Source: an uncultured bacterium
Lineage (GTDB): Bacteria > Lernaellota > Lernaellaia > Lernaellales > Lernaellaceae
DNA: 43,346 nt
Reading direction: 5' to 3'
NCBI GenBank assembly: GCA_964534375.1
Contig: CAZHPN010000029.1
Location: forward strand, 1 to 43,346
Positions within the stretch are counted from its first letter, which is position 1. The number at the start of each line of letters is the position of its first letter. The translations under genes were made by a program, and so were the position numbers. Below are positions 5,032-22,156 of this stretch, piece by piece. Under the pieces are notes generated by a model. It searched no databases. It was not told the origin of the DNA and saw only the letters and a list, made by a program, of their open reading frames with translations.

Positions 5032-5149
5032 CGGCGTTCCCCCTCGGCAAGCGGGCCGGGTTGTCCGGCAAAACCAAAGCAAAACACTCAAGAATCCCCT
5101 GAACGGGTAGATTATGATCGCGGCCGCGGCAATACAAGGGCGCCGCCGC

Positions 5150-5440
5150 GGCTGCACAGGTGGATGAAAACAAAGAGTTTTTGTTGTGCGCTGCCGTGCG
5201 CCATCGGGCGCAATTCGCGCTCGGTGCGCTAAGTGCTTGAAAACAAAGACTTTGCGGGAGTGCTCGCGCAGACGGGTCGAAAAACGCGCGCGGCGGGACA
5301 TCTAAGTATGTGAAAACAAAGCGTTTGCGGGAGTGGCGGGAGTGTGCGGGAGTCGAGAAAAAGCACTCCCGCCGCCTAACTATTTGAAAATACTGGGAAA
5401 ATACAGATTTGGCGGGAGTGGCGGGAGTGTTTCCCTATGC
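5150..5440. repeat. Degenerate tandem repeat array with a 73-bp period. Units begin near 5155, 5228, 5301 and 5373 with TGAAAACAAAG(nn)TTTG (a CAAAG-nn-CTTTG mini-palindrome). They are followed by 1-3 copies of GCGGGAGTG.
   Basis: Read directly. TGAAAACAAAG occurs at 5155, 5228 and 5301, exactly 73 bp apart. TTTGAAAATAC occurs at 5373. GCGGGAGTG occurs at 5244, 5318, 5327, 5337 (variant), 5402 and 5411. Confidence 0.7.
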
Positions 5441-5490
5441 TGGGCTTAAGGAAAAAAATGAAGTTAACAATAGTGTAAAGCCGTGCGGAA

Positions 5491-5517
5491 GGGGCGGAAA
5501 CACTCCCGCCACTCCCG
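5491..5517. repeat. An inverted triple copy (CACTCCCGC x3) of the GCGGGAGTG motif, closing the repeat array. With the 5401-5419 copies it can form a long-range stem.
   Basis: Read directly: CACTCCCGCCACTCCCGCCACTCCCGC is the reverse complement of GCGGGAGTGGCGGGAGTGGCGGGAGTG. Confidence 0.7.
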
Positions 5518-6376
5518 CCACTCCCGCAAAACCCGCCGCGGTGACGCCCCGCGTACGCGTTAACTGATTGCACGCACCCGGTCGCACCATTGCCCATCGA
5601 CGCAGGTCTCGTCGCCAGCATTTTTTCGGTCGTCCGACGCAGAATGGCGAATGGCGAATAAAGACATGGCGACGCCCCTCGAATTTCTCCATTTTCCACT
5701 ATCCCTTCTCCATTCCGGTTTTCGCTCCTCTCGAACGTTGGCTTGGCGCGGAGGGAGGACGGCCAGATAGGGACCTGCCGTCGGGGAAGCGCATCTTTTC
5801 ATCGACTCCGCTCGTCCCCAAAACGGCGTCTGGCGGGCGGGCCCCGGGTCTCACCGATTTCCAGCGCTTCACATTTAACTCACATAAACAAATTGCAACG
5901 ACGAAACCGAGCCATCGAAGATTTCGCTCGCGGTTGCACGGCCGCGGCCTGCGGAAAATTTTCCAGCGACCCGCGCGGTCTCGCAATGTTGGCCGTGTTT
6001 GGCCGTAAATCGGCGGAAATTGGCCAATGGGCCGGCGCGCCCGCGGGCCGCCGCCCGGCCGGCCGCGTAAAATCGCAATACTGGCGCGGTCAAATATCAC
6101 TTTTCGAACATCACCGCCAACTTGGCACGATTATTTCATACACATTTCTCGCCGTCAGAAAAAAGTTCGAAAAGTCGAAAAGTACGGTATTGCATTGTAT
6201 TGTTTGGGGATGATGGGCGCAGGCGACACGAACTCGTTCGGGTCCTTTCGGTAACACGCGTCGCCTTCGAGAACAGACAAGCAGCAGCAGTGCGCGTCCG
6301 CGCGCCGGCGACCATTTTGCGGTCGCAGCGCAAACGACGCCGGGCGAAACACTGTCGAATGGCCGAGGGGGAAACC

Positions 6377-6898
6377 ATGGCGCGCAAGCAATCCAGAGAC
6401 CAAAGCACTGAGAAAAATGTCGGATTAGGCAATATTTTCCATAGCTTAGGCGGGTTCATCGACTTGCTGTCCGACCTGGCGGAGCAGGGCGGCGAATTCA
6501 AACGCTCCGGCGAAACCAGCAACGACAAAGACGGCGTCAAGGCCGTTTACGGCTTCTCGGTGCGCCTCGGCGGCGGCGGCGGCAAGCCGGTCGTCGAACC
6601 GTTCGGCAACGTGAAACGCGAGGGCCAAAAAGCGGTCGTCGACGATACGCGCGAGCCGATGGTGGACGTGTTCGACGAGGGCGATCATTACCGCATCGTC
6701 GCCGAACTGCCGGGCGTGACCGCCGAAGATATTCACTACGAGCTTCGTGACGATATCCTCAATCTGCGCGCGGCGCACGGCGAGAAAAAATATCGCAAAG
6801 AGATTCTGCTGCCGGCGCCGGTCGCAGCGGAGCGCATCAAGTCGTCGTACCGCAACGGCGTGCTGGAGCTCAAAGCGCCCAAAGGCAAAACGTCGTAA
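6377..6898 (+). CDS. Hsp20/alpha-crystallin family protein (GvpH-like small heat-shock protein)
   Basis: The alpha-crystallin domain reads 'MVDVFDEGDHYRIVAELPGVTAEDIHYELRDDILNLRAAHGEKKYRKEILLPAPVAAERIKSSYRNGVLELKAPK'. The start is the ATG at 6377, after GAGGGGGAAACC. The gene lies at the edge of the gas-vesicle region. Confidence 0.75.
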   Translation: MARKQSRDQSTEKNVGLGNIFHSLGGFIDLLSDLAEQGGEFKRSGETSNDKDGVKAVYGFSVRLGGGGGKPVVEPFGNVKREGQKAVVDDTREPMVDVFDEGDHYRIVAELPGVTAEDIHYELRDDILNLRAAHGEKKYRKEILLPAPVAAERIKSSYRNGVLELKAPKGKTS

Positions 6899-6954
6899 CC
6901 GAGAGCGCGGGCGCTCGGTCGCCGGCGCCGCCGTCCGACAGGGGGAGAGGCCGC

Positions 6955-7290
6955 ATGCAAACCATTCTCACGCTGGAAGACCTCATTCACGCGATGACCA
7001 ATTCGTTGAGCGTCATCTCGGGCCATTCCCAGCACCTGCTCACCAAAGAGGCGATCGCCGGCAAAGAGCGGGAAGACCTGGTGGTCATTCGCGAACAAGC
7101 CGAGCGCGCTGTGAATCTGCTCGAACTGGTGCCGCGCGATGTCGTCAAACGGCGCGTCGGCGCCGCGGCCGCCGCGGCCGCCGCGGCGCAAGCGGCCGGC
7201 GCGCCGGCCGACGGGGGACTCAATCGCGGTCGGCGGGCCGACGACGTGCGCCTCGCCGCCCAGGAAGGAGTGCGCAGTGAAACGGAGTAA
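6955..7290 (+). CDS. Small protein with a HisKA-like dimerisation/phospho-acceptor helix and no ATPase domain
   Basis: A GGGGGAGAGG SD precedes the ATG at 6955. 'LEDLIHAMTNSLSVISGHSQHLL' resembles an H-box (the E-x-x-H-x-x-x-N/S-x-L pattern). The C-terminal half is poly-Ala and low-complexity. It overlaps the following receiver gene. Confidence 0.4.
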   Translation: MQTILTLEDLIHAMTNSLSVISGHSQHLLTKEAIAGKEREDLVVIREQAERAVNLLELVPRDVVKRRVGAAAAAAAAAQAAGAPADGGLNRGRRADDVRLAAQEGVRSETE

Positions 7291-7699
7291 GAAACCGGGG
7301 CCGGACGTGATGGTCATGGTGGTGGACGACGAACCCTACATCTGCCGCTTTTTCGAGCGGGTCCTCGGCGACGAAGGCTATCGCGTCGTCACGACCACCA
7401 GCGGCCGGCGGGCGCTGACGCTCGCGACCGAGGTGCAGCCGGACCTCGTGCTGCTGGATATCGTCATGCCCGATCTCGACGGCGTGTCGACATTGCGCGG
7501 TCTGCGCACGGGCGGGTACCAGGGACCGGTGATCATGGTGACGGGCATGGGGACGATGCAGACGGCGCGCGAGGCCATGCTGCTCGAAGCGTATCAATAC
7601 ATCACCAAACCGTTCGACCTGGCGTTCGTGCGGTCGATCATTCGGGAAGTCGTGCGCGACTTTGCCGGCCGGCGGAAGGAAGTCGCGTGCGCACTCTGA
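7277..7699 (+). CDS. Single-domain response regulator (CheY-like receiver)
   Basis: The receiver motifs are 'VMVVDDEPYICRF', 'DLVLLDIVMPDLDG' (phospho-Asp) and 'ITKPF'. A GTG at 7277 is preceded by AGGAAGGAG; the ATG at 7310 is an alternative start. Confidence 0.7.
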   Translation: MKRSKKPGPDVMVMVVDDEPYICRFFERVLGDEGYRVVTTTSGRRALTLATEVQPDLVLLDIVMPDLDGVSTLRGLRTGGYQGPVIMVTGMGTMQTAREAMLLEAYQYITKPFDLAFVRSIIREVVRDFAGRRKEVACAL

Positions 7700-8334
7700 T
7701 CTACGTGCCGATCATTCATGCCGAGTCGGACCTGGGGACCATGGCCGACGATGTGCGCGCGCAGTTCGACGCCTTGCGCGAGTCCGGCGACAACTGGGAA
7801 CGGCGGGCCGCGGCGATCGACTCCATGTGGGACGGCATCCGCGCCAAACTGTTCGCGCTGCCCGTCGAATGGCGCCGCACGCGCGTCTACCAGGACGGCC
7901 TGCCCGTCTGCCATCTGGAGGCGCAAATCGTGAAGGACCTCGCGGCCAAGGGCAGCCGGAATTTTCAGTTGCTGCTCGAGTTGGCCGCGCGCGGCGGCAC
8001 GGTGATGGGCGCGGACAAATTGGAATTGCTCATCGAGGAATATCAACGCGTGCAAAAATTGGTGCAGGCGGCGCGCGACGGCGCGTCGGACGAGGCGGTG
8101 CGCGAACTGCAAGACGAGGGCGACGCCATCCTGCGCAAGCGCGACGAGTTCATCGCCGCGCACATTCAAGACACGCTGCAAGAGGGCGAAACCGGCGTGC
8201 TGTTTCTCGGCGTGCTGCATCGCGTCGACGAACTGCTGGCCGGGAAGTTCGAAGTGCGGCATTTGATCCACAGCCTCCCGTTCGAGTCGGACGTGCGGCG
8301 GCTTTTGAAGGAGCGTCAGCGATATGGTTCATGA
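7687..8334 (+). CDS. Hypothetical protein (215 aa)
   Basis: The ORF has a non-random composition and a GTG start. It overlaps the upstream receiver gene and the downstream AAA ATPase, so it may be co-transcribed. No motif is recognised. Confidence 0.4.
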   Translation: MRTLIYVPIIHAESDLGTMADDVRAQFDALRESGDNWERRAAAIDSMWDGIRAKLFALPVEWRRTRVYQDGLPVCHLEAQIVKDLAAKGSRNFQLLLELAARGGTVMGADKLELLIEEYQRVQKLVQAARDGASDEAVRELQDEGDAILRKRDEFIAAHIQDTLQEGETGVLFLGVLHRVDELLAGKFEVRHLIHSLPFESDVRRLLKERQRYGS

Positions 8335-10513
8335 AGCAAAAAAACGGCAGACGGAAAGTGTCGCCTTGCGCGTGGCCGAGGCGTTGCCCAAAGACGTCGG
8401 CCGCGGCATCGCCCGGCTCGACCCGCAGGACCTGGCGCGGCTCGGCGCCGAAGTCGGCGACGTGTTGCTGGTGACCGGCGAGCGCGCCACGGCGGCCAAG
8501 GCGATGCCCGCCTACAGCGAGAACCGCGGCCAGGGGCTCGTGCAGATCGACGGCATCGTGCGCGGCAACGCCAAGGCCGGCCTCGACCAGCGCGTCACCG
8601 TGGCCAAAAGCAGCCACGCCCCGGCCGCCAAGATTGTCATGCGGCCCGTCAACGCGGCGGCCGCGGGCCCCCGCGACGGCGACGCGCGCTACGTCGGCCG
8701 GCTGCTCGACGGCCTGCCGCTGCTCGCCGGCGACCGCGTGCGCGCCCTGCTGTTCGGCTCGCGCTTTCAGGATTTCGAGGTGGTGGCGACGCAGCCGCGC
8801 GAGGGCTGCGTGATCGTGCACCCGCAGACGCAAATCGTGATCGAAGCCGAGGGCAAAGCCGGCGGCGGCAAATCGGCCGGCATCTCGTATGAGGACGTCG
8901 GCGGCCTGCACAAGGAAACGCGCCGCGTGCGGGAAATGATCGAACTGCCGCTGCGCTATCCGCAAATCTTCGAGCGCCTGGGCATCGACGCGCCGAAGGG
9001 GGTGCTGCTCTACGGCCCGCCGGGCACGGGCAAGACCTTGCTCGCCCGCGCCGTCGCGCACGAGACCGAGGCGAATTTCATTTCGGTCAGCGGGCCGGAA
9101 GTGATTCACAAGTTCTACGGCGAAAGCGAAGCGAAGCTGCGCGGAATTTTCGAGCAGGCGCGCAAAACCGCACCGTGCATCATCTTCCTCGACGAACTCG
9201 ACGCCATCGCCCCCAAGCGCGAAAACGTGCAGGGCGACGTGGAAAAACGCGTCGTCGCCCAACTCCTGGCGTTGATGGACGGCTTGGAGACGCGCGGGCA
9301 GGTCATCGTCATCGGCGCGACGAATATCCCCAATGTGCTGGACCCGGCCCTGCGGCGGCCCGGCCGCTTCGATCGCGAAATCGAGATCGGCATCCCGGAC
9401 GCCGGGGCGCGGCGCGAAATCCTCGAGATTCATACGCGCGGCATGCCGCTGGCCGACGATGTCGACCTCGGCCGGCTCGCGGAAATCACGCACGGCTTCG
9501 TCGGCGCGGACCTGCAGGCGCTGTGCCGCGAGGCGGCGATGACGACGCTGCGCAACGTGATGCCGGGGATCGACCTGGCGAGCAAAGAAATCCCCTACGA
9601 GGTGCTGGTCGCGCTGAAGGTGACGATGGCGCACTTTCTCTCGGCCCGGGGCGAGGTCGAGGCCTCGGCGGTGCGCGAGGTGTTCGTCGACGTGCCCAAC
9701 GTCAGTTGGGACGACGTCGGCGGCCTGGACGACATCAAACGCGAATTGCACGAAGCGGTCGAGTGGCCGCTCAAACACGCCGCCTTGCTCGCGCACGCCG
9801 GCGTGTCGCCTTCGAAAGGGATTCTGCTCTACGGCCGGCCCGGCAGCGGCAAGACCCTGCTCGCCAAAGCCGTGGGCTCGCAAAGCGGCGTCAATTTCAT
9901 CTCGGTCAAAGGCCCCGCGCTGCTGTCGAAGTACGTCGGCGAAAGCGAAAAGGGCATCCGCGAAGTCTTCAAGAAAGCGCGCCAGGCCGCGCCCTGCATC
10001 TTGTTTTTCGACGAGATCGACGCGCTCGCGCCGACCCGCACCGCCGAAAGCGGCGATTCGCACGTGGCGCAACGCGTGATCAGCCAACTGCTGACCGAAA
10101 TGGACGGCGTGGAAGAGCTCAAGGGCGTGCTGGTCATCGCCGCCACCAATCGCAAGGACATGCTCGATCCGGCGCTGCTGCGACCCGGACGCTTCGATCT
10201 CTTGATCGAGATGCCGACGCCCGACGCCGGCGCCCGCGCCAAAATCTTCGAGGTCTGCCTGAAAGGGAAGCCCCTGGCCAAGGGCGTGCGCCTTACGGAT
10301 CTGGCGCAGCGCACCGAGGGCGCGACCGGCGCCGACATCGACTCGATCTGCCGCCGCGCCGCGTTCCTGGCGGTGCGCGATTTTCTCGCGACGCACGCCG
10401 ATGAAGACGCGGCCAGTCTGCGCATCACCGACGAAAAACTGCGGGCCGCGATCCGCGACATCAGGGGGTCGAATCCGTCCGCGCGCGACGAAGCCGAACA
10501 GCGAGCCCAATAA
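8324..10513 (+). CDS. CDC48/VCP-like AAA+ ATPase with two AAA domains
   Basis: It has an N-domain, two Walker A motifs ([15 protein letters not shown] and [15 protein letters not shown]) and two second-region-of-homology motifs ([13 protein letters not shown] and [13 protein letters not shown]). Confidence 0.85.
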
Positions 10514-10516
10514 GCG

Positions 10517-11830
10517 ATGTTCTGCCTGACGTACCAAAACGAACAGGAACGGGCCCGGGCCGTGGTCGCCATCGCCCGCCGTTGCCGGAAAGCGCGCACG
10601 GCTTTCGCGTTCGTCGGCACGGCGGCGCAATGCGCGGCCCTTCGGCCGGAGGTCAAACGGCTCTCGGCGCCGGTGCACCGGAGCGTGACCTACTGCGCCA
10701 CGGAACTCGCCGTGATCGCGCACAGTCATGCCGCGCTGAACGAGGCGATCGGCGCGTTGCGCACGACCTTGCTCGAACTGTCGGCCGACGGCCGCCCGCT
10801 GGTGGTCTGGGTCGATTCGCCGCTCATGCCCGCCGGCGCCGCGCATGCCGGCGCGATGTGGGTCTACCGCAACGCGGTCGACGATTTCGCGGCCCTGGCG
10901 CGGTTGCGCATCGTCAACGCCTATCGCTTCGCCGAGGTCGCGCCGGCGGTGCGCGCCAATTTGTTCGAGGTGGCCAACGCGGTCATCAGCGCCCGCTCCG
11001 TTTTCCCGCTCTGTCCGCCGTGGGTGATCGAAGCGCCGGCTGAACCGCGCCGCGACAATTCCCGGGTCGCCGGCGCGGCGGCGCCGGGGGCCGGCTTCGG
11101 CTTCGGTTCGTTGCTGCAGGCGGAAAAGCTGGCGACGATCGGGCAGATGGCCGCCGGCTTCGCGCACGAACTGGGCAATCCGCTGTCGGTTATCAGCTCC
11201 AGCATTCAGCATTTGCAACAACGGTTCGAGGCCGCCGGCGATCCGGAGCGCGAATTCGCGACGCTGGCCTTGCAAAACGTCGAGCGGATGCAGGGCCTGC
11301 TGCAGAACATTCGCGAGGCGGCGGGCGTGCGCGAACGGCAATTCCAGGCCGTCGAACTCAAAGAAGTCGTGGCGGAAGTGCTGCGCTTCGCGGCGGCGGA
11401 ATTTCGCCGGCGCGGCGTCGCGGTCCAGGTCCGGTTCGATGCGGCGTTGCCGCGCGTCTTCGTGGATCCCAGCGGCGTGAAACAGGTGTTGCTCAACGTG
11501 GTCCGCAATGCGCTCGACGCCATGAACGGCGGCGGCGGCGCGTTGCGCGTGCACGCGTCGTGGTCGCGGGACAAGAACGCGGCCGTCGTGAAAATTGCGA
11601 ACAACGGCCCGGCGATCGCCGCGGCGGATTTGCCCTGCATGTTCCGGCCGTTTTTTACGACGAAGAAAGAAGGGACCGGCCTCGGCCTTTTCCTGTCGCG
11701 AAAAATCGCGCGGGAGCATGGCGGCGACCTGGCGGCGGAAAACGTGCCGGGCGGCGTGCGCTTCGTACTGACGCTGCCGCGGGATCCCCGCGAAAGGGAC
11801 GATCATGGCCAACATACTAATTGTGGATGA
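10517..11830 (+). CDS. Cytoplasmic sensor histidine kinase (HisKA + HATPase_c) with an uncharacterised N-terminal domain
   Basis: The H-box is 'AAGFAHELGNPLSVI'. The N/G boxes are 'LLNVVRNALDAM' and 'FFTTKKEGTGLGLFLS'. No hydrophobic TM segments are seen. The 3' end overlaps the NtrC-type regulator by 26 nt. Confidence 0.8.
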   Translation: MFCLTYQNEQERARAVVAIARRCRKARTAFAFVGTAAQCAALRPEVKRLSAPVHRSVTYCATELAVIAHSHAALNEAIGALRTTLLELSADGRPLVVWVDSPLMPAGAAHAGAMWVYRNAVDDFAALARLRIVNAYRFAEVAPAVRANLFEVANAVISARSVFPLCPPWVIEAPAEPRRDNSRVAGAAAPGAGFGFGSLLQAEKLATIGQMAAGFAHELGNPLSVISSSIQHLQQRFEAAGDPEREFATLALQNVERMQGLLQNIREAAGVRERQFQAVELKEVVAEVLRFAAAEFRRRGVAVQVRFDAALPRVFVDPSGVKQVLLNVVRNALDAMNGGGGALRVHASWSRDKNAAVVKIANNGPAIAAADLPCMFRPFFTTKKEGTGLGLFLSRKIAREHGGDLAAENVPGGVRFVLTLPRDPRERDDHGQHTNCG

Positions 11831-13211
11831 CGAACCGAATCTGTGCCGGCTGCTGACGATGCTGCTGCGCGAGCACGGGCACCGGGCGCGGTACGTGCTG
11901 TCGGGCGAGGATGCGCTGACCGCCGCGGCCGAACACGTCCCCGATCTCGCGCTGCTCGACTTGAACATGACCGGCATGGACGGCATGGAAACGCTGCGGC
12001 GGCTGAAACGCCAGGCCCCCGAACTCCAGGTGGTCATCATGTCGGCCGTCGGCGACCTGAGCGTGGCCGTGCGGGCGATGAAACAGGGCGCCGTCGATTT
12101 CCTTTCCAAACCGTTCGACAACAAGGCGTTGCTGTCCACGATCGACACTCATCTGGCCAACCGTAGCGAGGCCCCCCCGGACTCGCCGTTGCTCATAGGA
12201 CAGAGCCCTACCTTCCTGACCGCCGTCGACGAGGCGCGCAAATTCGCGCCGCCCGACATCAACGTGCTGCTGCTTGGCGAGACCGGCACGGGCAAGGAAC
12301 TCTTCGCGAAGACGATCCACGCTTGCAGCAAACGGCGCAACGGACCGTTCGTGGCGATGGACTGCTCGATGCTCGCCGAGAACCTGTTCGAGAGCGAACT
12401 GTTCGGCTATGAAAAAGGGGCCTTCACCGGCGCCGACACGTCGCGTATCGGCCGGCTGGAGCTGGCCCAGGGCGGCACGCTGTTCCTGGACGAAATCGGC
12501 AATCTGCCGCTGGCGTTCCAGGCGAAGATGCTGCGCGTTCTACAGGAGCGCCGCATGGTGCGCGTCGGCGGGCGCAAGACGATCGCCCTGGATGTGCGGC
12601 TGATCTCGGCGACCAATGTCAATGTCAAAGAAGCGGTCCAGGCGGGCCGGTTCCGGCAGGATCTCTTTTATCGGCTGCAGGAAGTCGCGATCAACCTGCC
12701 GCCGCTGCGCGAACGTCCCGGCGATGTGCGGCTGCTCGCGGAACGTTTCGTCGCGACCTACGCCAAGGCCTTCCAGGCCCCGGTGGCCTCGATCTCGCCG
12801 GAGGCGCTCCGGACGCTGGAATCGCATCCGTGGCCGGGCAATGTCCGCGAACTCGAAAATGCGATGAAGTCCGCCGTGGTGCGGGCCGCGGACATTATGC
12901 GCCGCGAGGATCTGCCGCCCGAGATTCAGGGGGAGTGTGCGGCGCCCGCCGCTTCGGCCCCGGCGTCCGCGCCGATCGGCCGGCGCCAGCGGCTGCTCGT
13001 GGAAATCGAATACGAACTCGACGCGCTGGGCGTCGACTTGAAAGCGATCGGCGCGCAAGCGGCCGAGCGGGCGGAAAGCCAGGTGCTGCAGGATTTGTCG
13101 AAGCGCGTGCGCGTCGCGGGCAGCCGCCTGGCGAAAATGGTCAACGTCGACCCCAAGACGTTGCGGACCAAGCTGCGCAAATACGGTCTCGAAACTCACG
13201 GAATATCATAA
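11805..13211 (+). CDS. Sigma-54-dependent response regulator (NtrC family enhancer-binding protein)
   Basis: The receiver reads '[14 protein letters not shown]' and '[13 protein letters not shown]'. The AAA+ sigma-54 interaction domain reads '[12 protein letters not shown]' and '[15 protein letters not shown]' (GAFTGA). A C-terminal HTH is present. Confidence 0.85.
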
Positions 13212-13413
13212 AGGAGCGCGACGTGCGCCGCATCGTCCACCACAAAATTGCGCCGGCGTCGGGCAAGCATTCCCCCGCGAGGGGAACCGATTCCCGGGGT
13301 TCGTTCCCCCAGGACGGCGCGCCGATAACCGGGACTTCGGGCGCGGCCCGAAAAATATCACAAAATCCGAACGTTGACGCGTTTTCGCCGCCGCCGGCGG
13401 GCCCGGCGCCCGT

Positions 13414-13429
13414 TGGCGCCGGTCTTGCT
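13414..13429 (+). promoter_or_regulatory. Sigma-54 (-24/-12) promoter TGGCGC-cggtc-TTGCT upstream of gvpA
   Basis: Read directly: the GG and GC dinucleotides are spaced as in the consensus TGGCAC-N5-TTGCW. It lies about 50 bp upstream of the gvpA start and directly downstream of the NtrC-family activator gene. Confidence 0.6.
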
Positions 13430-13480
13430 AAACCCCATATCGCCGCAACAACGCGGCGCAAAAAAACAAGGGGTATGAAA

Positions 13481-13702
13481 ATGGCAAAGGTTATGAAGTC
13501 AACTGATTCCTCGAGCCTGGCGGAAGTGGTGGACCGGATTCTCGACAAAGGCATCGTGATCGACGCTTGGGCCAAAGTCTCGCTGGTCGGCATCGAACTG
13601 TTGTCGGTCGAAGCGCGCGTTGTTATCGCGTCGGTCGAGACGTACCTGAAGTACGCGGAAGCCATCGGCTTGACCGCCACCGCGGCCGCGCCCACGGCGT
13701 AA
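13481..13702 (+). CDS. gvpA: Gas vesicle structural protein GvpA
   Basis: '[65 protein letters not shown]' is almost the canonical GvpA sequence. An AAGGGG SD lies 8 nt upstream of the ATG at 13481. Confidence 0.95.
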
Positions 13703-13719
13703 GCGGACGTGACGGCACA

Positions 13720-13761
13720 GGGGTCCGCTCCCCGAGACTGGCGGGCACGTCGATCTCGGGG
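13720..13761 (+). terminator. GC-rich stem-loops just after gvpA: GGGG-tccgct-CCCC and CCCCGAGA-N16-TCTCGGGG. This is a possible attenuator or partial terminator with no U-tract.
   Basis: Read directly. The position is like the partial terminators often found after gvpA that lower expression of downstream gvp genes. Confidence 0.3.
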
Positions 13762-13854
13762 GGCGGCTCCGACGAAAGCCGCGGTCGGCAACGTTTCACG
13801 GCGCGCGGTTCCCTTTGACGGGCCGCCGCCTCAACCGAAGAAAGGAGATCGGTG

Positions 13855-14280
13855 ATGAGCAATCATTTTACGAGTTTCACGGTCGATACGATGAAAGCGT
13901 TTGGCCAGGATTTGGCGGATCTGGCGCAGCATCGCACGGAAAGCATCACGAACATCCGCAATCATACCGAAGGCATGCTCGCGGGGTTCCTGAAAGAATT
14001 TCACGACGCGGCCGCCAAGCGCCGGAACGATGCGGCGGAAGACGCCGAAGCCCGCCGCAACCACTTGAACGCCTTGCGCGCCGAAGTGCAGTCGCTGCGC
14101 GAGACCTTCACGGCCGAGCGCGAAGCGATGGCCACCGACATCCGCGAGATGGCCGCCGAGCTGCGGCAGGCGTGCGAAACGTTCCGCAATCGTCCGCGGG
14201 CCGACCAGGCCTCGCCGGCGAAGGAATCGCCGCGCAGCAGCGGCCGCGGCAAGAACAAGCACAACAAGAGCGCGGAGTGA
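13855..14280 (+). CDS. Coiled-coil protein in the gvpC position. It has no GvpC 33-aa repeats.
   Basis: An AGGAGA SD precedes the ATG at 13855. The protein is Ala/Glu/Arg-rich and predicted helical (AEDAEARRNHLNALRAEVQSLRETFTAEREAMATDIREMAAELRQ). It lies between gvpA and gvpN. Confidence 0.5.
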   Translation: MSNHFTSFTVDTMKAFGQDLADLAQHRTESITNIRNHTEGMLAGFLKEFHDAAAKRRNDAAEDAEARRNHLNALRAEVQSLRETFTAEREAMATDIREMAAELRQACETFRNRPRADQASPAKESPRSSGRGKNKHNKSAE

Positions 14281-14380
14281 TCGCGGGACAGCCGCGCGCC
14301 GTGCGCGGCTGCCAATGCGGGCGCGGGCCGGGCGAAACCAGAAAGCGGAGCGACGGCGGCGTCGCGAAAGGAAAGGGACG

Positions 14381-15412
14381 ATGAACGGAAACGGCGAACA
14401 ACCCAATGTCGTAGCTCTCATGGACATCGCGTCGCCGACGGGCATGGCCGTCGAACCGAGCGAGGACTTCGTTCAAACTCCCGCGGTGCGGCAGTTGGCG
14501 AACCGGGCTCTCGCCTATCTCAAAGCGGGATACCCGGTTCATTTCTCCGGCCCGACGGGAACGGGAAAAACGACGCTGGCGCTGCACGTGGCGGCGCTGC
14601 GCGGCCGGCCGGTCACGCTGATGCACGGCGACGACGAGTTCAGCTCCAGCGACCTGGTCGGCGGCGAATACGGATATCGCAAAAGCAAGCTGATCGACAA
14701 CTTCATTCACTCGGTGGTCAAAACGGAAGAAAGCGTCAACACGCTGTGGACGGACAATCGGCTGACGCTGGCCTGCCGGGCCGGCGACACGTTGGTGTAC
14801 GACGAATTCACGCGCTCGCGGCCGGAAGCGAACAACGCGCTGCTCTCGGTGCTCGAGGAGCGGTTGCTCTCGCTGCCCAAACGGATGCCGCGCGCGGACG
14901 GTTATATGGAAGTCCATCCGGATTTTCGCGCGATCTTCACGTCGAATCCGGAGGAATACGCCGGCGTCCATCGCACGCAGGACGCGCTGCTGGACCGCCT
15001 GATCACCATCAAGGTCGATTATTTCAATCGCGATACGGAGGTGGAAATTACCCGCATGAAATCCGGACTGACCTTGGCGGAAGCCGTGATGATCGTGGAT
15101 GTCGTGCGCCAGTTGCGCGATATGGGGTTGACCAAGCAAGGGCCGAGTCTGCGCGCCTGCATCATGATCGGCCGCATCGCGGCTCAGCAGGGCGCGCACG
15201 CCCGGCGCGGCGACACGGTGTTCTCCGAAATCTGCCACGACGTGCTGGGCGGCCTGGCGCCGCGGGTCGTGCACGACGGCAAAAAGGGCATTCACTCGAT
15301 GATCGACGAAATCATCGCCAAGTGCGCCAAGGACGAGCGGCGGCCCGTGCGGGAAATCGCGGTCGGCGACAACGGGACGGCGATCGCCGTGAAGAAGGAG
15401 CAGCGGTCATGA
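14381..15412 (+). CDS. gvpN: Gas vesicle protein GvpN (MoxR/CbbQ-like AAA+ ATPase)
   Basis: The Walker A motif is 'FSGPTGTGKTTLALHVA' and the Walker B region is 'TLVYDEFTRSRPEANNALLSVLEER'. The size and position after gvpA are as expected. Confidence 0.85.
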   Translation: MNGNGEQPNVVALMDIASPTGMAVEPSEDFVQTPAVRQLANRALAYLKAGYPVHFSGPTGTGKTTLALHVAALRGRPVTLMHGDDEFSSSDLVGGEYGYRKSKLIDNFIHSVVKTEESVNTLWTDNRLTLACRAGDTLVYDEFTRSRPEANNALLSVLEERLLSLPKRMPRADGYMEVHPDFRAIFTSNPEEYAGVHRTQDALLDRLITIKVDYFNRDTEVEITRMKSGLTLAEAVMIVDVVRQLRDMGLTKQGPSLRACIMIGRIAAQQGAHARRGDTVFSEICHDVLGGLAPRVVHDGKKGIHSMIDEIIAKCAKDERRPVREIAVGDNGTAIAVKKEQRS

Positions 15413-15723
15413 AAAAACCGTCGCGCGAAGCCAAGTGCATCAAGACGTTGGCGTCGATTCGGGGCTCGGGATCGAATTCGGGCGAGCGCCACGTGCACCA
15501 ATTTCAATTGGCTTCCTTGGAACTCGACCGCTCGCGGCGGATGAACGAGAAGAACTCGGCCGCGGCGCGGATTCGGGAAATCGACGTGCGGCTGCACGAG
15601 ATCGACAAAGAGATTCGCCGGCATCAGCAGGCGTTGGACGCGGGCGGCGCCGGCCGCGCGTCGTCGCCGGCGAACGCGTCCGAACCAGCGGCGGGCCCGC
15701 GCCGACGGACGTTGCGGTACTAA
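15409..15723 (+). CDS. Small coiled-coil protein (104 aa), translationally coupled to gvpN (ATGA overlap)
   Basis: The ATG at 15409 overlaps the gvpN stop codon. It has a helical charged segment 'NEKNSAAARIREIDVRLHEIDKEIRRHQQALDAGG'. Confidence 0.45.
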   Translation: MKKPSREAKCIKTLASIRGSGSNSGERHVHQFQLASLELDRSRRMNEKNSAAARIREIDVRLHEIDKEIRRHQQALDAGGAGRASSPANASEPAAGPRRRTLRY

Positions 15724-15777
15724 TCGCGAAGCGGCGGCTCGGACCGCCGCCGTACAACTAATTGGGGACGCACAAAG

Positions 15778-16029
15778 ATGAGCATCAAATTAAATTGTCT
15801 GGCCTGCGGACACACGCTGACGCTCGGCGACGCGTACGAGGACTTCACCGGCGAGGTTCATTGCTGGGGCTGCCACACGCTGCTGGAAATCGCGTTGGTG
15901 GACGGCCGGCTCCGGTCGATCCGGCGGGCGGGAACCGGCGGCGCCGCGCTGGCCGCGCCCGCACACGAACAACCGGCGGAGCCGCAAGCGCCGCTGCCGC
16001 GGGATGGCGAGGCGGGTTATGGCGAATAA
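15778..16029 (+). CDS. Small zinc-ribbon protein (CxxC ... CxxC)
   Basis: 'MSIKLNCLACGHTLTLGDAYEDFTGEVHCWGCHTLLEIALVDG' has a GGGGA SD upstream. The C-terminal half is low-complexity. It overlaps the gvpF start. Confidence 0.4.
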   Translation: MSIKLNCLACGHTLTLGDAYEDFTGEVHCWGCHTLLEIALVDGRLRSIRRAGTGGAALAAPAHEQPAEPQAPLPRDGEAGYGE

Positions 16030-16783
16030 AGGGCTTTATCTCTACGGCCTGATTCGCGCGGACGACCAGCGGGAGTTCGGCTGCATCGGCTTGGCCGACG
16101 AAGGCGCGCCGGCGCTGGTGACGTCGATTTGCATCGCCGGGGTCTGCGCCGTGGTCAGCGACTGCGGGACGCAAAAAATCATGCCGTTGCGGAAGTATCT
16201 GGATCCCTATCATCGGGTGATCCAGGAAGTGATGAAAACGGCGACGATCATCCCCATTCGTTTCGGGCACGTCGCCAGAAACCGCGACGCCATCGCGACG
16301 ATGTTGAAGCACAACCGCGACACGATCCGCGAAGGTCTCGACCGGGTCGCCGGCTGCGTCGAAATGGGGCTGAAGGTGAAATGGGATGTGGACAACATCT
16401 TCGAACATTTCATCGGCATCGACGCGGAACTGGCCGCCTTTCGCGACGAGATCTTCGGCCGGTCGCAGGCGCCGAGCCTGGCGGAAAAAATCGAGCTGGG
16501 CCGGCTCTTCGCGGAGCGGCGGGCGAAGGAACGCGAGCGGGAGACGGAGCGGGTCATCGAACAGTTCCAGGGGTTTTCCGCCGACGTGAAATCGAATACC
16601 CCCAAGAACGAAACCGTCGTCATGGATCTCGCCTTTTTGGTGGCCCGCGACGCGATGAAGACGTTCGAGGAGCGGGTGTATCAAGTGGCGGCGACGTTCC
16701 CGTCGCACTATCTGTTCGACTACACGGGGCCGTGGGCGCCGTTCAACTTCGTGGACCTGGATCTGCAAACGCCGGACGATTGA
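16019..16783 (+). CDS. gvpF: Gas vesicle protein GvpF/GvpL family
   Basis: The N-terminus 'GLYLYGLIRADDQREFGCIGL' is typical of GvpF/L. The length, about 255 aa, also fits the family. Confidence 0.8.
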   Translation: MANKGLYLYGLIRADDQREFGCIGLADEGAPALVTSICIAGVCAVVSDCGTQKIMPLRKYLDPYHRVIQEVMKTATIIPIRFGHVARNRDAIATMLKHNRDTIREGLDRVAGCVEMGLKVKWDVDNIFEHFIGIDAELAAFRDEIFGRSQAPSLAEKIELGRLFAERRAKERERETERVIEQFQGFSADVKSNTPKNETVVMDLAFLVARDAMKTFEERVYQVAATFPSHYLFDYTGPWAPFNFVDLDLQTPDD

Positions 16784-16792
16784 GGGGACGCC

Positions 16793-17023
16793 ATGGGCAT
16801 CATCAACGCGTCGGTGCGCGGGCTGTTTCGCGTGTTCGATGAGGTCGCCGATCTCGCCGAAAAAGAACTGTACGACGAGGACGGGGTCAAAAACGAACTC
16901 ATGGAAATCTACAAGAATCTCGAAGCCGGCGTGCTCGACGAAGAAGAGTTCGAACGCCGGGAAGCCCGTTTGGTCGAGCGGCTGGGCGAGATCGAGGAGC
17001 GGCAGAAATCGAGGGGTCGATGA
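16793..17023 (+). CDS. gvpG: Gas vesicle protein GvpG
   Basis: The 76-aa product 'FRVFDEVADLAEKELYDEDGVKNELMEIYKNLEAGVLDEEEFERREARLVERLGEIEE' matches the GvpG pattern (ELYDE ... EEEFE...LLERL). Confidence 0.75.
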   Translation: MGIINASVRGLFRVFDEVADLAEKELYDEDGVKNELMEIYKNLEAGVLDEEEFERREARLVERLGEIEERQKSRGR

Positions 17024-17605
17024 CGACGAGAATCGCCGGCGGCGTGTGGCGCCGCGGCGGCCGGCCGGCGCTGGCGCAGCCCGGCGACGAAGGACCGTGG
17101 CGCCGCGGAGGACGGCGTCCGACGCCGCACGGCGTGCGCGCCAAACGCCGGATCGGGCGGCGCGCGCCGTTTCATCCGGGCGACCCGCGGTTTGAGATGT
17201 TTCTGGATGGCGCGTGAATCGTCGGTTCCGCAACGCGACACGAGAGGTTGGGACGACATGAGAAAGCGGCCCGCGATCGGCGGCAAAACCAGCAACGCAA
17301 CAGCGCGCGGCGGCAACCAACCGCCTCGCGCCGTGCGATCGCCCGCGCACCACGACGGCTTGCTCGACGCCGGCGCCTCGGACGACGCGTTCGTCGCGCT
17401 CGAACGCTGCCTGGAACGGATTCCGGTCGGGAGTTGGGCGGGCATGGTGATCGTCCGGCGCACAGAGCCGAACGCGATGAGCCGGGCGCGCGAAGGCAGC
17501 CGGCAGCCGGCGCCCGGCGACGCGTACCGCAGTTGTTTCCCGACGCGTCCGCCGCTCGCGCCGGCGGCGGCGGGCGATGCGCAGGGCGCCCTCGGGAGAA
17601 TCGTG

Positions 17606-18865
17606 ATGTTGCTGCGGGCGCGCACCGGGCACGATTTCTCGCTGTACAAGAAACGGACGCTTTACTACCGCGTCGAGCGGCGGATGGAACAACATCAAAT
17701 TGACACCGTGGGGTCGTACGCGGCGTTCCTGGCCGGCGATCCGCAGGAATTGGATATTCTGTACAAGGAAATGTTGATCGGCGTGACGGGCTTTTTCCGC
17801 GACCCGGCGGCGTGGGAGGCGTTGAAATCTCACGTACTGCCGGCGCTGATCGCGAGCCGGCCGGCCGGCACGACGTTGCGCGTCTGGGCGCCCGGTTGCT
17901 CGACCGGCGAAGAGGCGTACTCGCTGGCCATTGTGTTTCAGGAGGCATTCGAAAACATCGCCCCGCGCAAGAACCAGGCGGTGCGGATTTTCGCGACGGA
18001 TTTGAATCGCGACGCGCTGCAGATCGCCCGCCGCGGATTTTACCCGCGCGAGATCGCGGCGGCGGTTTCGCCCGAACGGTTGCGGCGGTTCTTTCCCGAG
18101 GAGCCAGACGGCTATCGGGTGGCGGCGGAACTGCGCACGCCCGTCGTCTTTATGGTTCACAACGTGATCATGGATCGCCCGTTCGCCCAAATGGATCTGT
18201 TGATTTGCCGCAACCTGCTGATTTATCTCGACCCCCGCCTGCAAAAGAACCTCCTGACCATGTTCTGGCAGACCCTGAATCGGGGCGGCTTCCTTTTCCT
18301 CGGCCCCGCCGAATCGGTCAGCGGCGCGCGCGACCTGTTCACGCCGGCGCAGCGGCCGGCGAAGCTGTTTCAACGCGTCGAAATCAGTGCGCCGGCGCGA
18401 CTGGCGCCCCTCGCACCCGCCGTGCAGCGGCTGCCGTTCGGCGCCGGCGAGTCGGCCATTTTGCGGCTGGAGAGCGGCGGCGCCGCCGACCGTTCCCGCG
18501 CGCAGACCACGCGCGTGATTCCCGTCGCCTACGGCCGCGAAGATCGCCTGCTCGCCGACATTACGGCGGACTGGGCGTATCCGGAATTGGCGGCCGACGT
18601 GCGCCTGGCCTTTCAAAACGGCGCGCCCACGGACCGGGAGATCGACCTGCCCGACGGCCGGCGCTGGACCGCGCGCATCACGCCCTGGAACGTGCCCGGG
18701 CGCCAGCTCGACGCGGTCGTCGTCGCCGTGCGCGAAACGACAGCCATGCAATTGATGGAGCGGGAGCTGCGCGCGGCGGAAACGCGGCAACGGCAATTCC
18801 CGCACGCGGCGGCGGAACGCGGCGGCGAACGGCCCGCGGACGCGCGCGAGGGGGGCCGGCCGTGA
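17606..18865 (+). CDS. cheR: CheR-type protein-glutamate O-methyltransferase with a C-terminal PAS-like extension (stand-alone, not fused to CheB)
   Basis: The CheR_N region reads 'LLRARTGHDFSLYKKRTLYYRVERRM'. The SAM-binding region reads 'GFFRD...LRVWAPGCSTGEEAYSLAI...LLICRNLLIYLD'. A GGGAGAA SD lies 5 nt before the ATG at 17606. An N-terminal extension to 17477 cannot be excluded. Confidence 0.8.
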   Translation: MLLRARTGHDFSLYKKRTLYYRVERRMEQHQIDTVGSYAAFLAGDPQELDILYKEMLIGVTGFFRDPAAWEALKSHVLPALIASRPAGTTLRVWAPGCSTGEEAYSLAIVFQEAFENIAPRKNQAVRIFATDLNRDALQIARRGFYPREIAAAVSPERLRRFFPEEPDGYRVAAELRTPVVFMVHNVIMDRPFAQMDLLICRNLLIYLDPRLQKNLLTMFWQTLNRGGFLFLGPAESVSGARDLFTPAQRPAKLFQRVEISAPARLAPLAPAVQRLPFGAGESAILRLESGGAADRSRAQTTRVIPVAYGREDRLLADITADWAYPELAADVRLAFQNGAPTDREIDLPDGRRWTARITPWNVPGRQLDAVVVAVRETTAMQLMERELRAAETRQRQFPHAAAERGGERPADAREGGRP

Positions 18866-20586
18866 CCTCGGGCAAGCGGGCGATGTCGGATTTCAACACG
18901 CTGCGGCGGCGCGCCGAGGAGAAGTTGCGCGAACACCGCCACGTCGCGGCCGGCGGCGCGCTGGACGACGAAACGCAGAATTTGCTGCGCGAACTGCAGG
19001 TCCATCAGATCGAACTGGAATTGCAGAATGAAGAGTTAATCGGCTCGCGCGAGGAGCTCGAACGCACGCTGGAACGGTTCACCGACCTGTTCGACCGCGC
19101 GCCGGTGGGCTATTTCGCCATCGATCGCGAGGGCGTAATCCGGCAGGCGAACCTGACCGGCGCGACGCTGCTCGGCGTGGAGGCGCCCTTGCTGGCGAAC
19201 CGGCCGTTTGCGCAATTCGTCGTCGCGGAGGCGCGGCCGAGATTCGCCGTCTTTCTCCGGACGGTTTTCGACAAGCGGACGCGCCGCTTGTGGGAAACAT
19301 CGTTGCTGCGGCCGGGCAAGCGGCCGCGGTTCGTGCGCCTCGAGGCGACCGTTCCGGAGACGGGCGGCGAGTGCCGGCTGGCGGCGCTGGACATCACCGC
19401 CCGGCGGCGAATGGAGGAAGCGCTCCGGAAAAGCGACGAGAAATATCGGCTGATCGCGGAAAACGTAATGGACGTGATTTGGACCGCGGATTTGTCGCTG
19501 AACATTCAATATATCAGTCCGGCGGTCCTGCGCATGCGCGGGTACAGCGTCAGCGAAGCCCGGCGGCAGGCGCCGGAAGAGATCTTCCCCGCGTCGTCGT
19601 TGGAGATGTTGAATGGTCTGCTCGCCGCGGAATGGGAAAAAGATGCGCGGCCGCCGGCCGACCCCGCCGACGTGCGCACGATCGAGTTGGAACAGTACTG
19701 CAAAGACGGTTCGACCATCTGGACCGAATGTCAATTCGGTTTCCTGCGCGACGAAGACGGCCGGCCGCAGGGGATTATCTGCGTCACGCGCAACATCACC
19801 GAACGGCGGCGGGCGCAAGCGGAACGGTTGACGATGGAAGCGCAATTGCGCCATCAGCAAAAGCTCGAGTCCATCGGCACGCTGGCCAGCGGCGTCGCGC
19901 ACGAAATCAACAATCCGCTGATGGGCATCATGAACTTCGCCGAGTTGATTCAGACCCAGGACATGCCGCGGGTCAAAGTCGAGGATTTCGCCCGCAAGAT
20001 CGTCGCGGAAAGCGCGCGGGCGGCGAAAATCGTCCGCAATTTGCTGGCGTTTTCGCGGCAGGACAGCGAGGAACACAGCCCGGCGCTGATCGACACCGTC
20101 ATCCGCTCGACCTTGTCGTTGATCGAAACCGTGCTGCGCAACGAGGAAATCAAGGTCACAGTGGACGTGCCGGACGGGCTGCCGGCGATCCGCTGCCGGA
20201 GCCAGCAGATTCAGCAAGTGATCCTGAATCTGGTGACCAATGCCCGCGACGCGTTGAACGAGCGATATCCGGGCCGGGATCCCGACAAGACCCTGGCGAT
20301 CCGCGCCCGGCAAATGGAAAAGGACGGCGCGCCGTGGATTCGCACGGTCGTCGAAGACCACGGCGTCGGCATGGCCGCAAAAACAATGGCCCGGATATTC
20401 GATCCTTTTTTTTCCACCAAGCCGCGCCATCTGGGCACCGGCCTCGGGTTGTCCGTCAGTCACGGAATTATCCGGGAGCACGGCGGCAATTTATGGGTGG
20501 ACAGCAGACTGGGTGAATTTTCGCGGTTCTACGTGGACCTGCCGGTCGACAACGGCTGGCGGCTGGACCGCGACCGAACCGTGTGA
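18862..20586 (+). CDS. PAS/PAC sensor histidine kinase with an N-terminal 'LQxHQIELELQNEEL' coiled-coil motif, translationally coupled to cheR (GTGA overlap)
   Basis: The N-terminus is 'LLRELQVHQIELELQNEELIGSREELERTLERFTDLFDRAPVGYFAID'. Two PAS domains follow. The H-box is 'SGVAHEINNPLMGI', the N box is 'LNLVTNARDAL' and the G box is 'FFSTKPRHLGTGLGLSVSHGII'. Confidence 0.8.
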   Translation: MTSGKRAMSDFNTLRRRAEEKLREHRHVAAGGALDDETQNLLRELQVHQIELELQNEELIGSREELERTLERFTDLFDRAPVGYFAIDREGVIRQANLTGATLLGVEAPLLANRPFAQFVVAEARPRFAVFLRTVFDKRTRRLWETSLLRPGKRPRFVRLEATVPETGGECRLAALDITARRRMEEALRKSDEKYRLIAENVMDVIWTADLSLNIQYISPAVLRMRGYSVSEARRQAPEEIFPASSLEMLNGLLAAEWEKDARPPADPADVRTIELEQYCKDGSTIWTECQFGFLRDEDGRPQGIICVTRNITERRRAQAERLTMEAQLRHQQKLESIGTLASGVAHEINNPLMGIMNFAELIQTQDMPRVKVEDFARKIVAESARAAKIVRNLLAFSRQDSEEHSPALIDTVIRSTLSLIETVLRNEEIKVTVDVPDGLPAIRCRSQQIQQVILNLVTNARDALNERYPGRDPDKTLAIRARQMEKDGAPWIRTVVEDHGVGMAAKTMARIFDPFFSTKPRHLGTGLGLSVSHGIIREHGGNLWVDSRLGEFSRFYVDLPVDNGWRLDRDRTV

Positions 20587-20599
20587 AGAGGAGCGCGCC

Positions 20600-21724: not shown

Positions 21725-21727
21725 CGG

Positions 21728-22156
21728 ATGGCAAACATCTTTCCGGGGGGAAACAAATTGACCACGCCGACGAATCTGCGACCGATGCGGGACCGCGGGA
21801 GCAAGGAATCCCTGGCCGACGCGATCGAAGTCATTCTCGACAAAGGGTTGGTGATCAACGCCGACATCACCGTGTCCGTGGCCGGCGTCGAGCTCCTCGG
21901 CATCAAAATCCGCGCGGCGCTGGCCTCGTTCGCCACGGCGGCCAAATACGGATTGGAGTTCCCGTCGGGGACCAACATCGAAACCTCCGCCTGGCGGCAG
22001 GCGCAGTCGGGCGACGAGTCTTGTCCGCAGTGCGGCAAACATTCCGCGACCGAAGAACTGCTCAATGACGGCTGCCCGTGGTGCGGCTGGCAAAGCGCGC
22101 GGGCGAGGGCGGTTGCGCCGGCGCCGCTGCCGCTGCCGATCGCCGGCAGTCAATGA
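21728..22156 (+). CDS. gvpJ: GvpJ/GvpM-type (GvpA-like) protein with a C-terminal zinc-ribbon extension
   Basis: The GvpA-like core is 'SLADAIEVILDKGLVINADITVSVAGVELLGIKIRAALASFATAAKYGL'. The C-terminus 'CPQCGKHSATEELLNDGCPWCG' is a CxxC...CxxC ribbon. The start may be the Met at 21785. Confidence 0.7.
   Translation: MANIFPGGNKLTTPTNLRPMRDRGSKESLADAIEVILDKGLVINADITVSVAGVELLGIKIRAALASFATAAKYGLEFPSGTNIETSAWRQAQSGDESCPQCGKHSATEELLNDGCPWCGWQSARARAVAPAPLPLPIAGSQ

Follow-up and report, generated by a model that had tools for sequence, protein, structure and literature searches.

Transcription of gas vesicle genes from a sigma-54 promoter is known from Serratia 39006, in which the start site of gvpA1, mapped by 5' rapid amplification of cDNA ends (5'-RACE), lies behind a sigma-54 consensus and depends on GvrA, itself an NtrC-like sigma-54 activator (PMC4982088). 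An rpoN transposon mutant of Serratia forms no gas vesicles and shows reduced gvpA1-gvpY transcription, and in the model for this organism, sigma-54 RNA polymerase at the -24/-12 element is opened by GvrA (PMC11778176). In haloarchaea, GvpD causes loss of the activator GvpE (PMC9501494), and ArsA-like ATPases and Hsp20 proteins were noted earlier in gas vesicle (gvp) clusters (PMC2963123). Here we analyze the promoter region of gvpA, and the regulatory and CDC48-family ATPase genes upstream of it, in a 43,346-nucleotide (nt) contig (GenBank CAZHPN010000029.1; G+C content, 63.7%) from an uncultured bacterium of the Lernaellota; this whole stretch is referred to as the window.

An original prediction for this DNA proposed a sigma-54 promoter for gvpA and regarded control of gas vesicles by a sigma-54 enhancer-binding protein as unusual, citing GvrA/B/C of Serratia as a contrast. 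The Serratia findings overturn the claim of unusual control and the contrast drawn with GvrA/B/C, since the promoter mapped for gvpA1 is of the sigma-54 type and requires RpoN and GvrA, a member of this very class of activators. The regulatory logic of the window is a further example of the kind known from Serratia, in other phyla and with a different gene arrangement. The explanation that we favor, and hold with reasonable confidence, is that gvpA is transcribed from a sigma-54 promoter fired by the adjacent activator, with a CDC48 module that lies outside this switch.

RESULTS

Predicted sigma-54 promoter of gvpA

The presence of a genuine sigma-54 promoter at 13414-13429, within the spacer (13212-13480) that precedes gvpA, is well supported by the conservation of this element across phyla. 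The features of this region are as follows.

10517-11830, plus strand: cytoplasmic histidine kinase whose N-terminal sensor region is MEDS-like (HisKA and HATPase_c)
11805-13211, plus strand: NtrC-type sigma-54 enhancer-binding response regulator (Response_reg, Sigma54_activat, and AAA_lid_14)
13269-13310, no strand: candidate upstream activator sites, TTCCC/GGGAA dyads (inverted repeats)
13414-13429, plus strand: predicted sigma-54 promoter, -24 TGGCGC and -12 TTGCT (motif and conservation)
13441-13458, plus strand: stem-loop CGCCGC-aacaac-GCGGCG (inverted repeat with conserved pairing)
13481-13702, plus strand: gvpA, major gas vesicle shell protein (Pfam Gas_vesicle, E = 1.7e-16)

Orthologous loci came from scans with the activator protein, which returned metagenome-assembled genomes (MAGs) labelled Deltaproteobacteria/Myxococcales together with soil, groundwater, and lake metagenomes; four further loci (L162 to L165) were reached through the CDC48 ATPase or its partner protein. 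The gene order recovered by tblastn is shared among loci and consists of CDC48, the kinase (where present), the activator, gvpA, and the downstream gvp genes. All 13 of the other non-redundant sigma-54-type loci examined, which cover Myxococcota, Acidobacteriota, and Desulfobacterota (Geotalea uraniireducens), have TGGC-N7-TTG(C/T) before gvpA, and throughout the L001 to L093 set the element lies 44 to 73 nt before the gene. The elements in these 13 loci are as follows.

L001: TGGCAT-N5-TTGCA
L003 and L005: TGGCAT-N5-TTGCT
L081: TGGCCC-N5-TTGCT
L083: TGGCAC-N5-TTGCT
L084: TGGCAG-N5-TTGCT
L086, L088, and L093 (receiver-less activator): TGGCAC-N5-TTGTC
L162, Hyalangium gracile (gvpA element): TGGCAC-N5-TTGCT
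L163, Thermoanaerobaculia MAG: TGGCAT-N5-TTGCT
L164, Acidobacteria MAG: TGGCAT-N5-TTGCT, displaced by about 450 nt by inserted repeats
L165, Geotalea uraniireducens Rf4: TGGCAT-N5-TTGTA

When ten of the spacers are aligned, TGGC and TTG form the sole invariant block against a mean column identity of 44%. No -24/-12 element is present in the Chloroflexi locus (L169), where gvpA follows an OmpR-type regulator.

Two variants of the arrangement occur among these loci. In the Acidobacteria MAG, several copies of a palindrome of about 20 nt (GCTCCGTAGGGGCGGCCTGT and its complement) lie at 14200-14620, between the sigma-54 promoter and gvpA, producing a leader of about 450 nt. In the rhizosphere metagenome loci L086 to L089 and L093, the activator has no receiver domain, there is no kinase, and the CDC48 gene directly precedes the activator gene; the -12 element of this variant, like that of Geotalea, is TTGT, not TTGC.

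Within the window, TGGCGC (13414-13419) is separated by cggtc from TTGCT (13425-13429), such that the GG (13415-13416) and GC (13427-13428) are spaced by exactly 10 nt, and the element agrees with the consensus TGGCAC-N5-TTGCW at 11 of 12 positions. The gvpA start codon (13481; MAKVMKS..., a start conserved among relatives) is 53 nt past the -12 GC, confirming the predicted distance of about 50 bp, and is preceded at 7 nt by a Shine-Dalgarno GGGG (13470-13473). An in-frame ATG at 13475 was rejected as the start, being too near to this GGGG.

The motif itself occurs in the window at the level expected by chance. The four invariant positions invoked in the original prediction are correctly placed but uninformative, because GG-N10-GC is found 859 times against an expectation of 823; similarly, TGGC-N7-TTGC occurs twice where 2.2 occurrences are expected. 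A scan with a leave-one-out weight matrix, trained on the other loci only, returned the site at 13414 as the top GG-containing match (14.5 bits), but comparable maxima are obtained with shuffled windows (mean, 12.9 bits; overall maximum, 19.6 bits). Because both counts and scores are at chance over the window, the motif alone was not used as evidence: the signal beyond chance is the position of the element and its conservation. At the background rate of high-GC loci, a match on the correct strand within 100 nt upstream of gvpA has a probability of about 0.0035 per locus.

Candidate activator sites and leader hairpin

The inverted repeats that had been anticipated some 80 to 150 bp upstream are present at 13269-13310, as the dyads TTCCCC-N5-GGGGAA and GGGGAAC-N15-GTTCCCC with a GATTCCC in between, 105 to 145 bp upstream of the -24 GG. 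For 13 loci, enrichment of 6-mers was assessed over the 240 nt that precede the -24 element (1,222 tests); the top five (TTCCCT, ATTCCC, TCCCGG, GATTCC, and TTCCCC) are overlapping forms of one half-site (9 observed against 0.9 to 1.25 expected). Both TTCCCT (9 versus 0.9) and ATTCCC (9 versus 1.25) survive Bonferroni correction, although the background is mostly coding DNA and some of the 13 loci are interrelated, which counts against our interpretation. L083 and L001 have perfect dyads of the form GATTCCC-N6/7-GGGAATC, and in Geotalea such sites are densely clustered. These candidate sites are likely to be bound by the activator.

The stem-loop at 13441-13458 folds in the window and in L001, L005, L081, L083, and L162; across these six sequences, it is 94% paired, with two compensatory pairs. 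It is present in Myxococcota-type loci and absent from the Acidobacteria, Geotalea, and receiver-less-activator loci, and an Rfam search of the window returned no matches. The predicted gvpA transcript would begin with this stem-loop, which could be an mRNA-stabilizing 5' hairpin or a DNA operator.

Additional sigma-54 elements precede the GvpH-led operon, with its genes for CDC48, the kinase, and the activator, in three loci.

L088, 4293: TGGCAC-N5-TTGC
L001, about 1108: GGGCAT-N5-TTGCA
L162, intergenic 6748-7174, facing the divergent CDC48-containing operon: TGGCGC-N5-TTGCT

These elements suggest positive autoregulation. In L001, the region before the GvpH-like gene (about 940-1125) is a near-duplicate of the gvpA promoter region (about 9790-9980) that spans the tail of the REC gene, a GATTCCC dyad, and the -24/-12 element; promoter and activator site were therefore duplicated together, as a unit. 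The corresponding candidate in the window is weak: TGGCACgattaTTTC, at 6123-6137 on the plus strand and 250 nt upstream of the GvpH-like gene, is flanked by an 11-nt inverted repeat (6099-6109/6165-6175), but it was rejected as a firm sigma-54 site, being outside the top 15 weight-matrix matches and having TTTC at -12.

A CDC48-family ATPase and its module

The genes that precede the kinase form a co-directional block with it.

6377-6898, plus strand: GvpH-like small heat-shock protein (Hsp20), heading the block
6955-7290, plus strand: small H-box-like protein, possibly a phosphotransfer protein (HisKA match below threshold, E = 0.015)
7307-7699, plus strand: response regulator consisting of a receiver (REC) domain only (Response_reg, 96.9 bits; listed open reading frame [ORF] from 7139, likely start near 7307)
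7687-8334, plus strand: conserved partner of the CDC48 ATPase, about 210 amino acids (aa), with a ChaN/TraB/Tiki/erythromycin-esterase-like fold
8324-10513, plus strand: CDC48/VAT-family double-ring AAA+ ATPase (CDC48_N, CDC48_2, and two AAA domains with lid; TIGR01243)

The ORFs at 7139-7699, 7687-8334, 8324-10513, 10517-11830, and 11805-13211 overlap by 13, 11, or 26 nt or are separated by a 3-nt gap, and they look like one translationally coupled operon. Together with the Pfam and NCBIfam assignments, this bears out the earlier description of the neighbors of gvpA as an operon-like set of sigma-54 activator, kinase, and double-ring CDC48-like ATPase.

The ATPase scores 906 bits against TIGR01243 (cutoff, 803), has the double-psi-barrel N domain and two AAA domains of the CDC48/VAT/p97 family, and aligns over its full length with archaeal VAT (5g4f; E = 1e-215). 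Its pore loops are aromatic in both rings (KFYG in D1 and KYVG in D2). The C-terminal HbYX motif for docking to the 20S proteasome, a feature of archaeal CDC48/VAT members and not of the whole family, is absent from its tail (...DEAEQRAQ). Homologues with 63 to 82% identity come from many phyla, and all 10 of the sampled homologue contexts are in or beside gvp clusters. Six of these contexts were found through similarity to the ATPase (L161, Hyalangium gracile, Thermoanaerobaculia, Acidobacteria, Chloroflexi, and a Poribacteria-labelled lineage); the four found through the partner protein, which include Geotalea uraniireducens Rf4, again show CDC48, Hsp20, REC-only, and gvp genes. The module thus occurs in gvp clusters of Myxococcota, Acidobacteriota, Desulfobacterota, Chloroflexi, and the Poribacteria-labelled lineage. 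The open-access literature yielded no mention of a CDC48-family gene in gas vesicle clusters, though an earlier description may exist; the association is real and broad, and it is apparently undescribed.

The recurrent set comprises the Hsp20/GvpH-like protein, the REC-only protein, the ChaN/TraB-fold protein, and CDC48; the kinase and activator may or may not accompany them. The product of 6377-6898 matches Pfam HSP20, scores 28.9 bits against GvpH (PF05455; cutoff, 22), and lies just above the Hsp20 equivalog cutoff of NCBIfam (142.5 versus 140 bits); its orthologue also leads the block in L001, L081, L161, L162, and L163. The protein encoded at 6955-7290 is kept in L001 and L084 (tblastn), and the same slot in L164 holds a HisKA-only gene. 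REC-only genes encoding 129 to 140 aa adjoin the partner gene in L161, L163, L164, L166, and L167. In almost all contexts, the partner gene adjoins the ATPase gene or lies close to it, and in most it is found immediately upstream. The family of the partner protein (380 members) carries no annotation. The protein shares a fold with the ChaN/TraB/Tiki/erythromycin-esterase superfamily; the match to TraB_PrgY_gumN (E = 0.018; 15 bits) is below the cutoff of 27, and a profile search against PDB sequences returned no matches. Invariant His and Glu residues are found in the family.

Our reading, based solely on gene context and fold, is that this set is a gas vesicle protein-handling module in which a holdase and an unfoldase, possibly joined by a hydrolase, work under phospho-control. 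The original prediction had hinted that the ATPase chaperones or turns over either GvpA or the regulator. That hint was reasonable, and the comparative data favor gas vesicle proteins as the target over the regulator, because the ATPase gene is retained even in gvp clusters that lack a nearby sigma-54 activator. Its neighbors are gvpF/L genes in Hyalangium and in the Chloroflexi and Poribacteria-like loci, and more generally gvpF/L, Hsp20, and gvpA-like genes in Hyalangium, L166, L169, and L170. Cotranscription of CDC48 with the regulators in the window would then be a matter of operon organization. It is possible, though we put this forward only tentatively, that the unfoldase, its partner (a possible hydrolase or peptidase), Hsp20, and the REC protein constitute an unrecognized phosphorylation-controlled machine acting on shell proteins, for example, by extracting or recycling the GvpA of vesicles that have collapsed or are in surplus, or by maintaining GvpA in an assembly-competent state.

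The same comparison bears on the alternative in which the ATPase is a regulatory device, unfolding the activator or another regulator or delivering it for turnover, as in the breakdown of GvpE brought about by GvpD (PMC9501494). Such a role would fit the cotranscription of CDC48 with the kinase and activator in the window, L001 to L004, L081, L163 to L165, and L168; the position of its gene directly before a receiver-less activator, with no kinase, in L086 to L088; and the presence of the REC-only companion, which recalls adaptor proteins such as RssB. The persistence of the ATPase in clusters that have no such activator nearby makes this alternative unlikely, and a role in handling gas vesicle proteins remains the preferred reading.

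Several observations extend the picture of these clusters. In L161, which has the closest CDC48 (82% identity), the block runs Hsp20, small protein, REC, partner, CDC48, kinase, activator; no gvpA is within reach, and the activator gene is followed by opposite-strand genes for asparagine synthase and radical-SAM/SPASM proteins. The module of regulators and ATPase is therefore separable from gvpA. Fusions of GvpF/L to a DnaJ (J) domain recur in the CDC48-bearing Acidobacteria, Chloroflexi, and Poribacteria-like clusters (L164, 18146-19246; L166, 2847-3851; L169, 11221-12264; and L170, 2228-3406), providing another chaperone link, and L169 also contains a gene for an ArsA-type ATPase.

The adjacent activator and kinase

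The protein encoded at 11805-13211 has the features of the NtrC-type class: Response_reg (102 bits) and Sigma54_activat (228 bits) domains, a receiver Asp (LLDLNM), Walker A, Walker B, and GAFTGA motifs in the AAA+ domain, and a C-terminal Fis-type helix-turn-helix. Pfam HTH_8 was not reported at E <= 0.001; the NtrC model aligns to residues 4 to 459 and extends to its own last position. In NCBIfam, the activator is most similar to NtrC, AtoC, and ZraR and the kinase to AtoS and ZraS. All of these scores are far short of the equivalog cutoffs; those of the activator (377 versus 559 bits for NtrC, 374 versus 714 for AtoC, and 351 versus 760 for ZraR) mark it as a family member and as none of these proteins proper. 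The N terminus of the kinase matches positions 3 to 156 of the 161 in the MEDS profile (PF14417; E = 6e-4), at a score (20.1 bits) below the cutoff of 29.8, and no hydrophobic or membrane segment is obvious in its translation.

In 12 other non-redundant loci, representing at least three phyla, gvpA is immediately preceded by an activator gene. These gvp-linked activators are 38 to 64% identical to that of the window and share the recognition helix [VI]DPKTLRxKL[RK][RK]YGL. The other two sigma-54 activators of the window (30571-31944 and 41475-42911, both on the minus strand) are 30 to 32% identical to it and have a different helix, which makes the adjacent activator the best candidate for the protein acting at gvpA.

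An alternative is that the sigma-54 promoter is real but is fired by one of these two proteins, or by an enhancer-binding protein encoded elsewhere, with the adjacent regulator controlling another target, such as its own operon. That three sigma-54 activators reside within 43 kb would allow this, as would Hyalangium, whose divergent gvp operons both have sigma-54 promoters with no activator within 9 kb, and L161, whose kinase-activator pair is not followed by gvpA. The recurrence of the activator-then-gvpA order across phyla, together with the distinctive helix and the enriched dyads that recur with these activators, argues against it, and we judge it to be quite unlikely. Action of the adjacent activator thus remains the reading that we prefer.

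Several points weigh against that reading and against the promoter itself. At 14.5 bits, the element is not by itself significant over the window, and it is the weakest of its family (the others score 18.7 to 26.5 bits), with G for A in TGGCAC. No plus-strand terminator was found in the spacer between the activator gene and gvpA, and read-through might therefore contribute to gvpA transcription. The window contains two other sigma-54 activators. The maintenance of the promoter in Hyalangium with no activator nearby and the retention of an activator with no gvpA downstream in L161, the nearest relative for the CDC48 gene, indicate that adjacency of activator and gvpA is not universal. No rpoN gene lies in the 43-kb window; its presence in the genome is implied by the three window genes with sigma-54-interaction domains. 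In favor of the promoter, a simple scan for sigma-70-like sites, which would miss atypical promoters, found none in 13100-13900.

It is highly improbable that the -24/-12 match is fortuitous, with gvpA read through from the regulatory operon or transcribed from an unrecognized promoter of another sigma class: chance-level counts and scores, the lack of a terminator, and the limits of the sigma-70 scan would permit this, but the element is kept in 13 further loci whose flanks have diverged and is absent where the regulator is OmpR-type, no sigma-70-like site was found, and Serratia provides an experimental precedent.

Other genes and repeats of the window

The genes that follow gvpA belong to the same gas vesicle cluster.

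13852-17023, plus strand: downstream gvp genes, encoding a 142-aa conserved protein, GvpN, two small ORFs, GvpF/L, and GvpG
14315-15412, plus strand: GvpN (TIGR02640, 358 bits)
16004-16783, plus strand: GvpF/L (Pfam GvpL_GvpF)
16793-17023, plus strand: GvpG (Pfam GvpG)

The order of these genes is common to the window, L001, L005, L081, and L163, and the GvpA of the window is 94 to 97% identical to those of L001, L005, L081, and L083. Besides GvpA, GvpN, GvpF/L, and GvpG, the cluster contains GvpJ-type paralogues; no match to GvpK was identified in the window. Just 3' of the gvpA stop codon, at 13730-13761, an 8-bp GC-rich stem (CCCCGAGA/TCTCGGGG) encloses a 16-nt loop and has no T tract; it was spotted by eye and is missing from the output of the terminator scan. 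The stem may serve in processing or attenuation and so raise gvpA transcript levels relative to those of the downstream genes.

Signaling genes are unusually dense within and after the gvp cluster (17192-29023 and 30571-42911). Those on the plus strand encode a CheR methyltransferase, a PAS kinase, a REC-HD protein, a 1,634-aa hybrid PAS kinase with Hpt, and a REC-GGDEF protein, and those on the minus strand encode the two further sigma-54 activators, two hybrid PAS kinases, and a HisKA_3 kinase with a REC-GerE regulator. On the other side of the block, at 5300-5540, a 9-nt unit (GCGGGAGTG) is present in at least 10 copies in both orientations. This array includes perfect 25-nt inverted arms (5410-5434 and 5496-5520) and lies just upstream of a minus-strand gene for a pyruvate-formate-lyase-like glycyl-radical enzyme (2539-5301).

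DISCUSSION

In the mechanism that we propose, sigma-54 RNA polymerase would sit at 13414-13429 as a closed complex. The kinase (10517-11830) would phosphorylate the response regulator (11805-13211), which would then bind the dyads at 13269-13310, 105 to 145 bp upstream. Its GAFTGA loop would contact sigma-54, with ATP spent to open the promoter, and transcription would start near 13440 (13439-13441), giving a leader of about 41 nt that opens with the hairpin and continues into gvpA and the downstream gvp genes. This logic would be the same as that of GvrA and sigma-54 at gvpA1 of Serratia 39006. The CDC48 ATPase, although probably cotranscribed with the regulators here, would stand outside the promoter switch, and with its ChaN/TraB/Tiki-fold partner, the GvpH-like Hsp20, and the REC-only protein would most likely unfold or remodel gas vesicle proteins.

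With respect to the promoter, these results extend the Serratia paradigm and add two elements, a candidate site for the activator and a hairpin that is conserved in the leader; sigma-54 control of gvpA appears to be widespread, not peculiar to Serratia, and to include uncultured Myxococcota, Acidobacteriota, and relatives of Geobacter. The CDC48 module travels with gas vesicle genes whatever the type of regulator, and the assembly and removal of gas vesicles are poorly understood. GvpN is the only AAA+ component currently counted by the field, including in the engineering of acoustic reporters. If the machine reading is true, it bears on how cells remove or remodel very stable shells, and Geotalea uraniireducens Rf4 and Hyalangium gracile are cultured hosts that carry the module.

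The locus resembles several described systems in part. As in the window, the gvpA1 system of Serratia has a sigma-54 -24/-12 element directly before the major gvpA, an NtrC-family activator encoded inside the cluster, further cluster-encoded regulators, and a GvpH (Hsp20-like) gene in the regulatory operon. It differs in that quorum sensing (SmaR) acts directly on gvpA1 and in that neither a CDC48-family ATPase nor a ChaN/TraB-fold partner has been reported. The activator of the window is likened to GvrA as a functional analogy only. The NtrB/NtrC, AtoS/AtoC, and ZraS/ZraR systems share with the window a paired kinase and REC-AAA+(GAFTGA)-HTH regulator, upstream dyads, and a -24/-12 promoter. 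Their kinases use PAS or periplasmic sensors, whereas that of the window has a cytoplasmic MEDS-like sensor region, and the predicted target of the window pair, unlike the targets of those systems, is the gene for an organelle shell.

The ATPase has the N-D1-D2 architecture of archaeal VAT and eukaryotic Cdc48/p97 and, like VAT, aromatic pore loops in both rings; unlike them, it is bacterial, occurs in gas vesicle clusters, has no HbYX tail, and is partnered by a ChaN/TraB/Tiki-fold protein rather than by adaptors of the ubiquitin type. The haloarchaeal GvpD/GvpE system likewise places an NTPase gene next to an activator gene in a gvp cluster, but the proteins belong to unrelated families, transcription is archaeal, and the CDC48 ATPase persists in clusters that have no activator. 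Like CDC48, GvpN, ArsA-like ATPases, and Hsp20/GvpH are chaperones or energy-using proteins whose genes accompany those for gas vesicles; among the ATPases, CDC48 is a type II double-ring unfoldase, whereas GvpN is a MoxR-like AAA+ protein and ArsA is a non-AAA+ protein.

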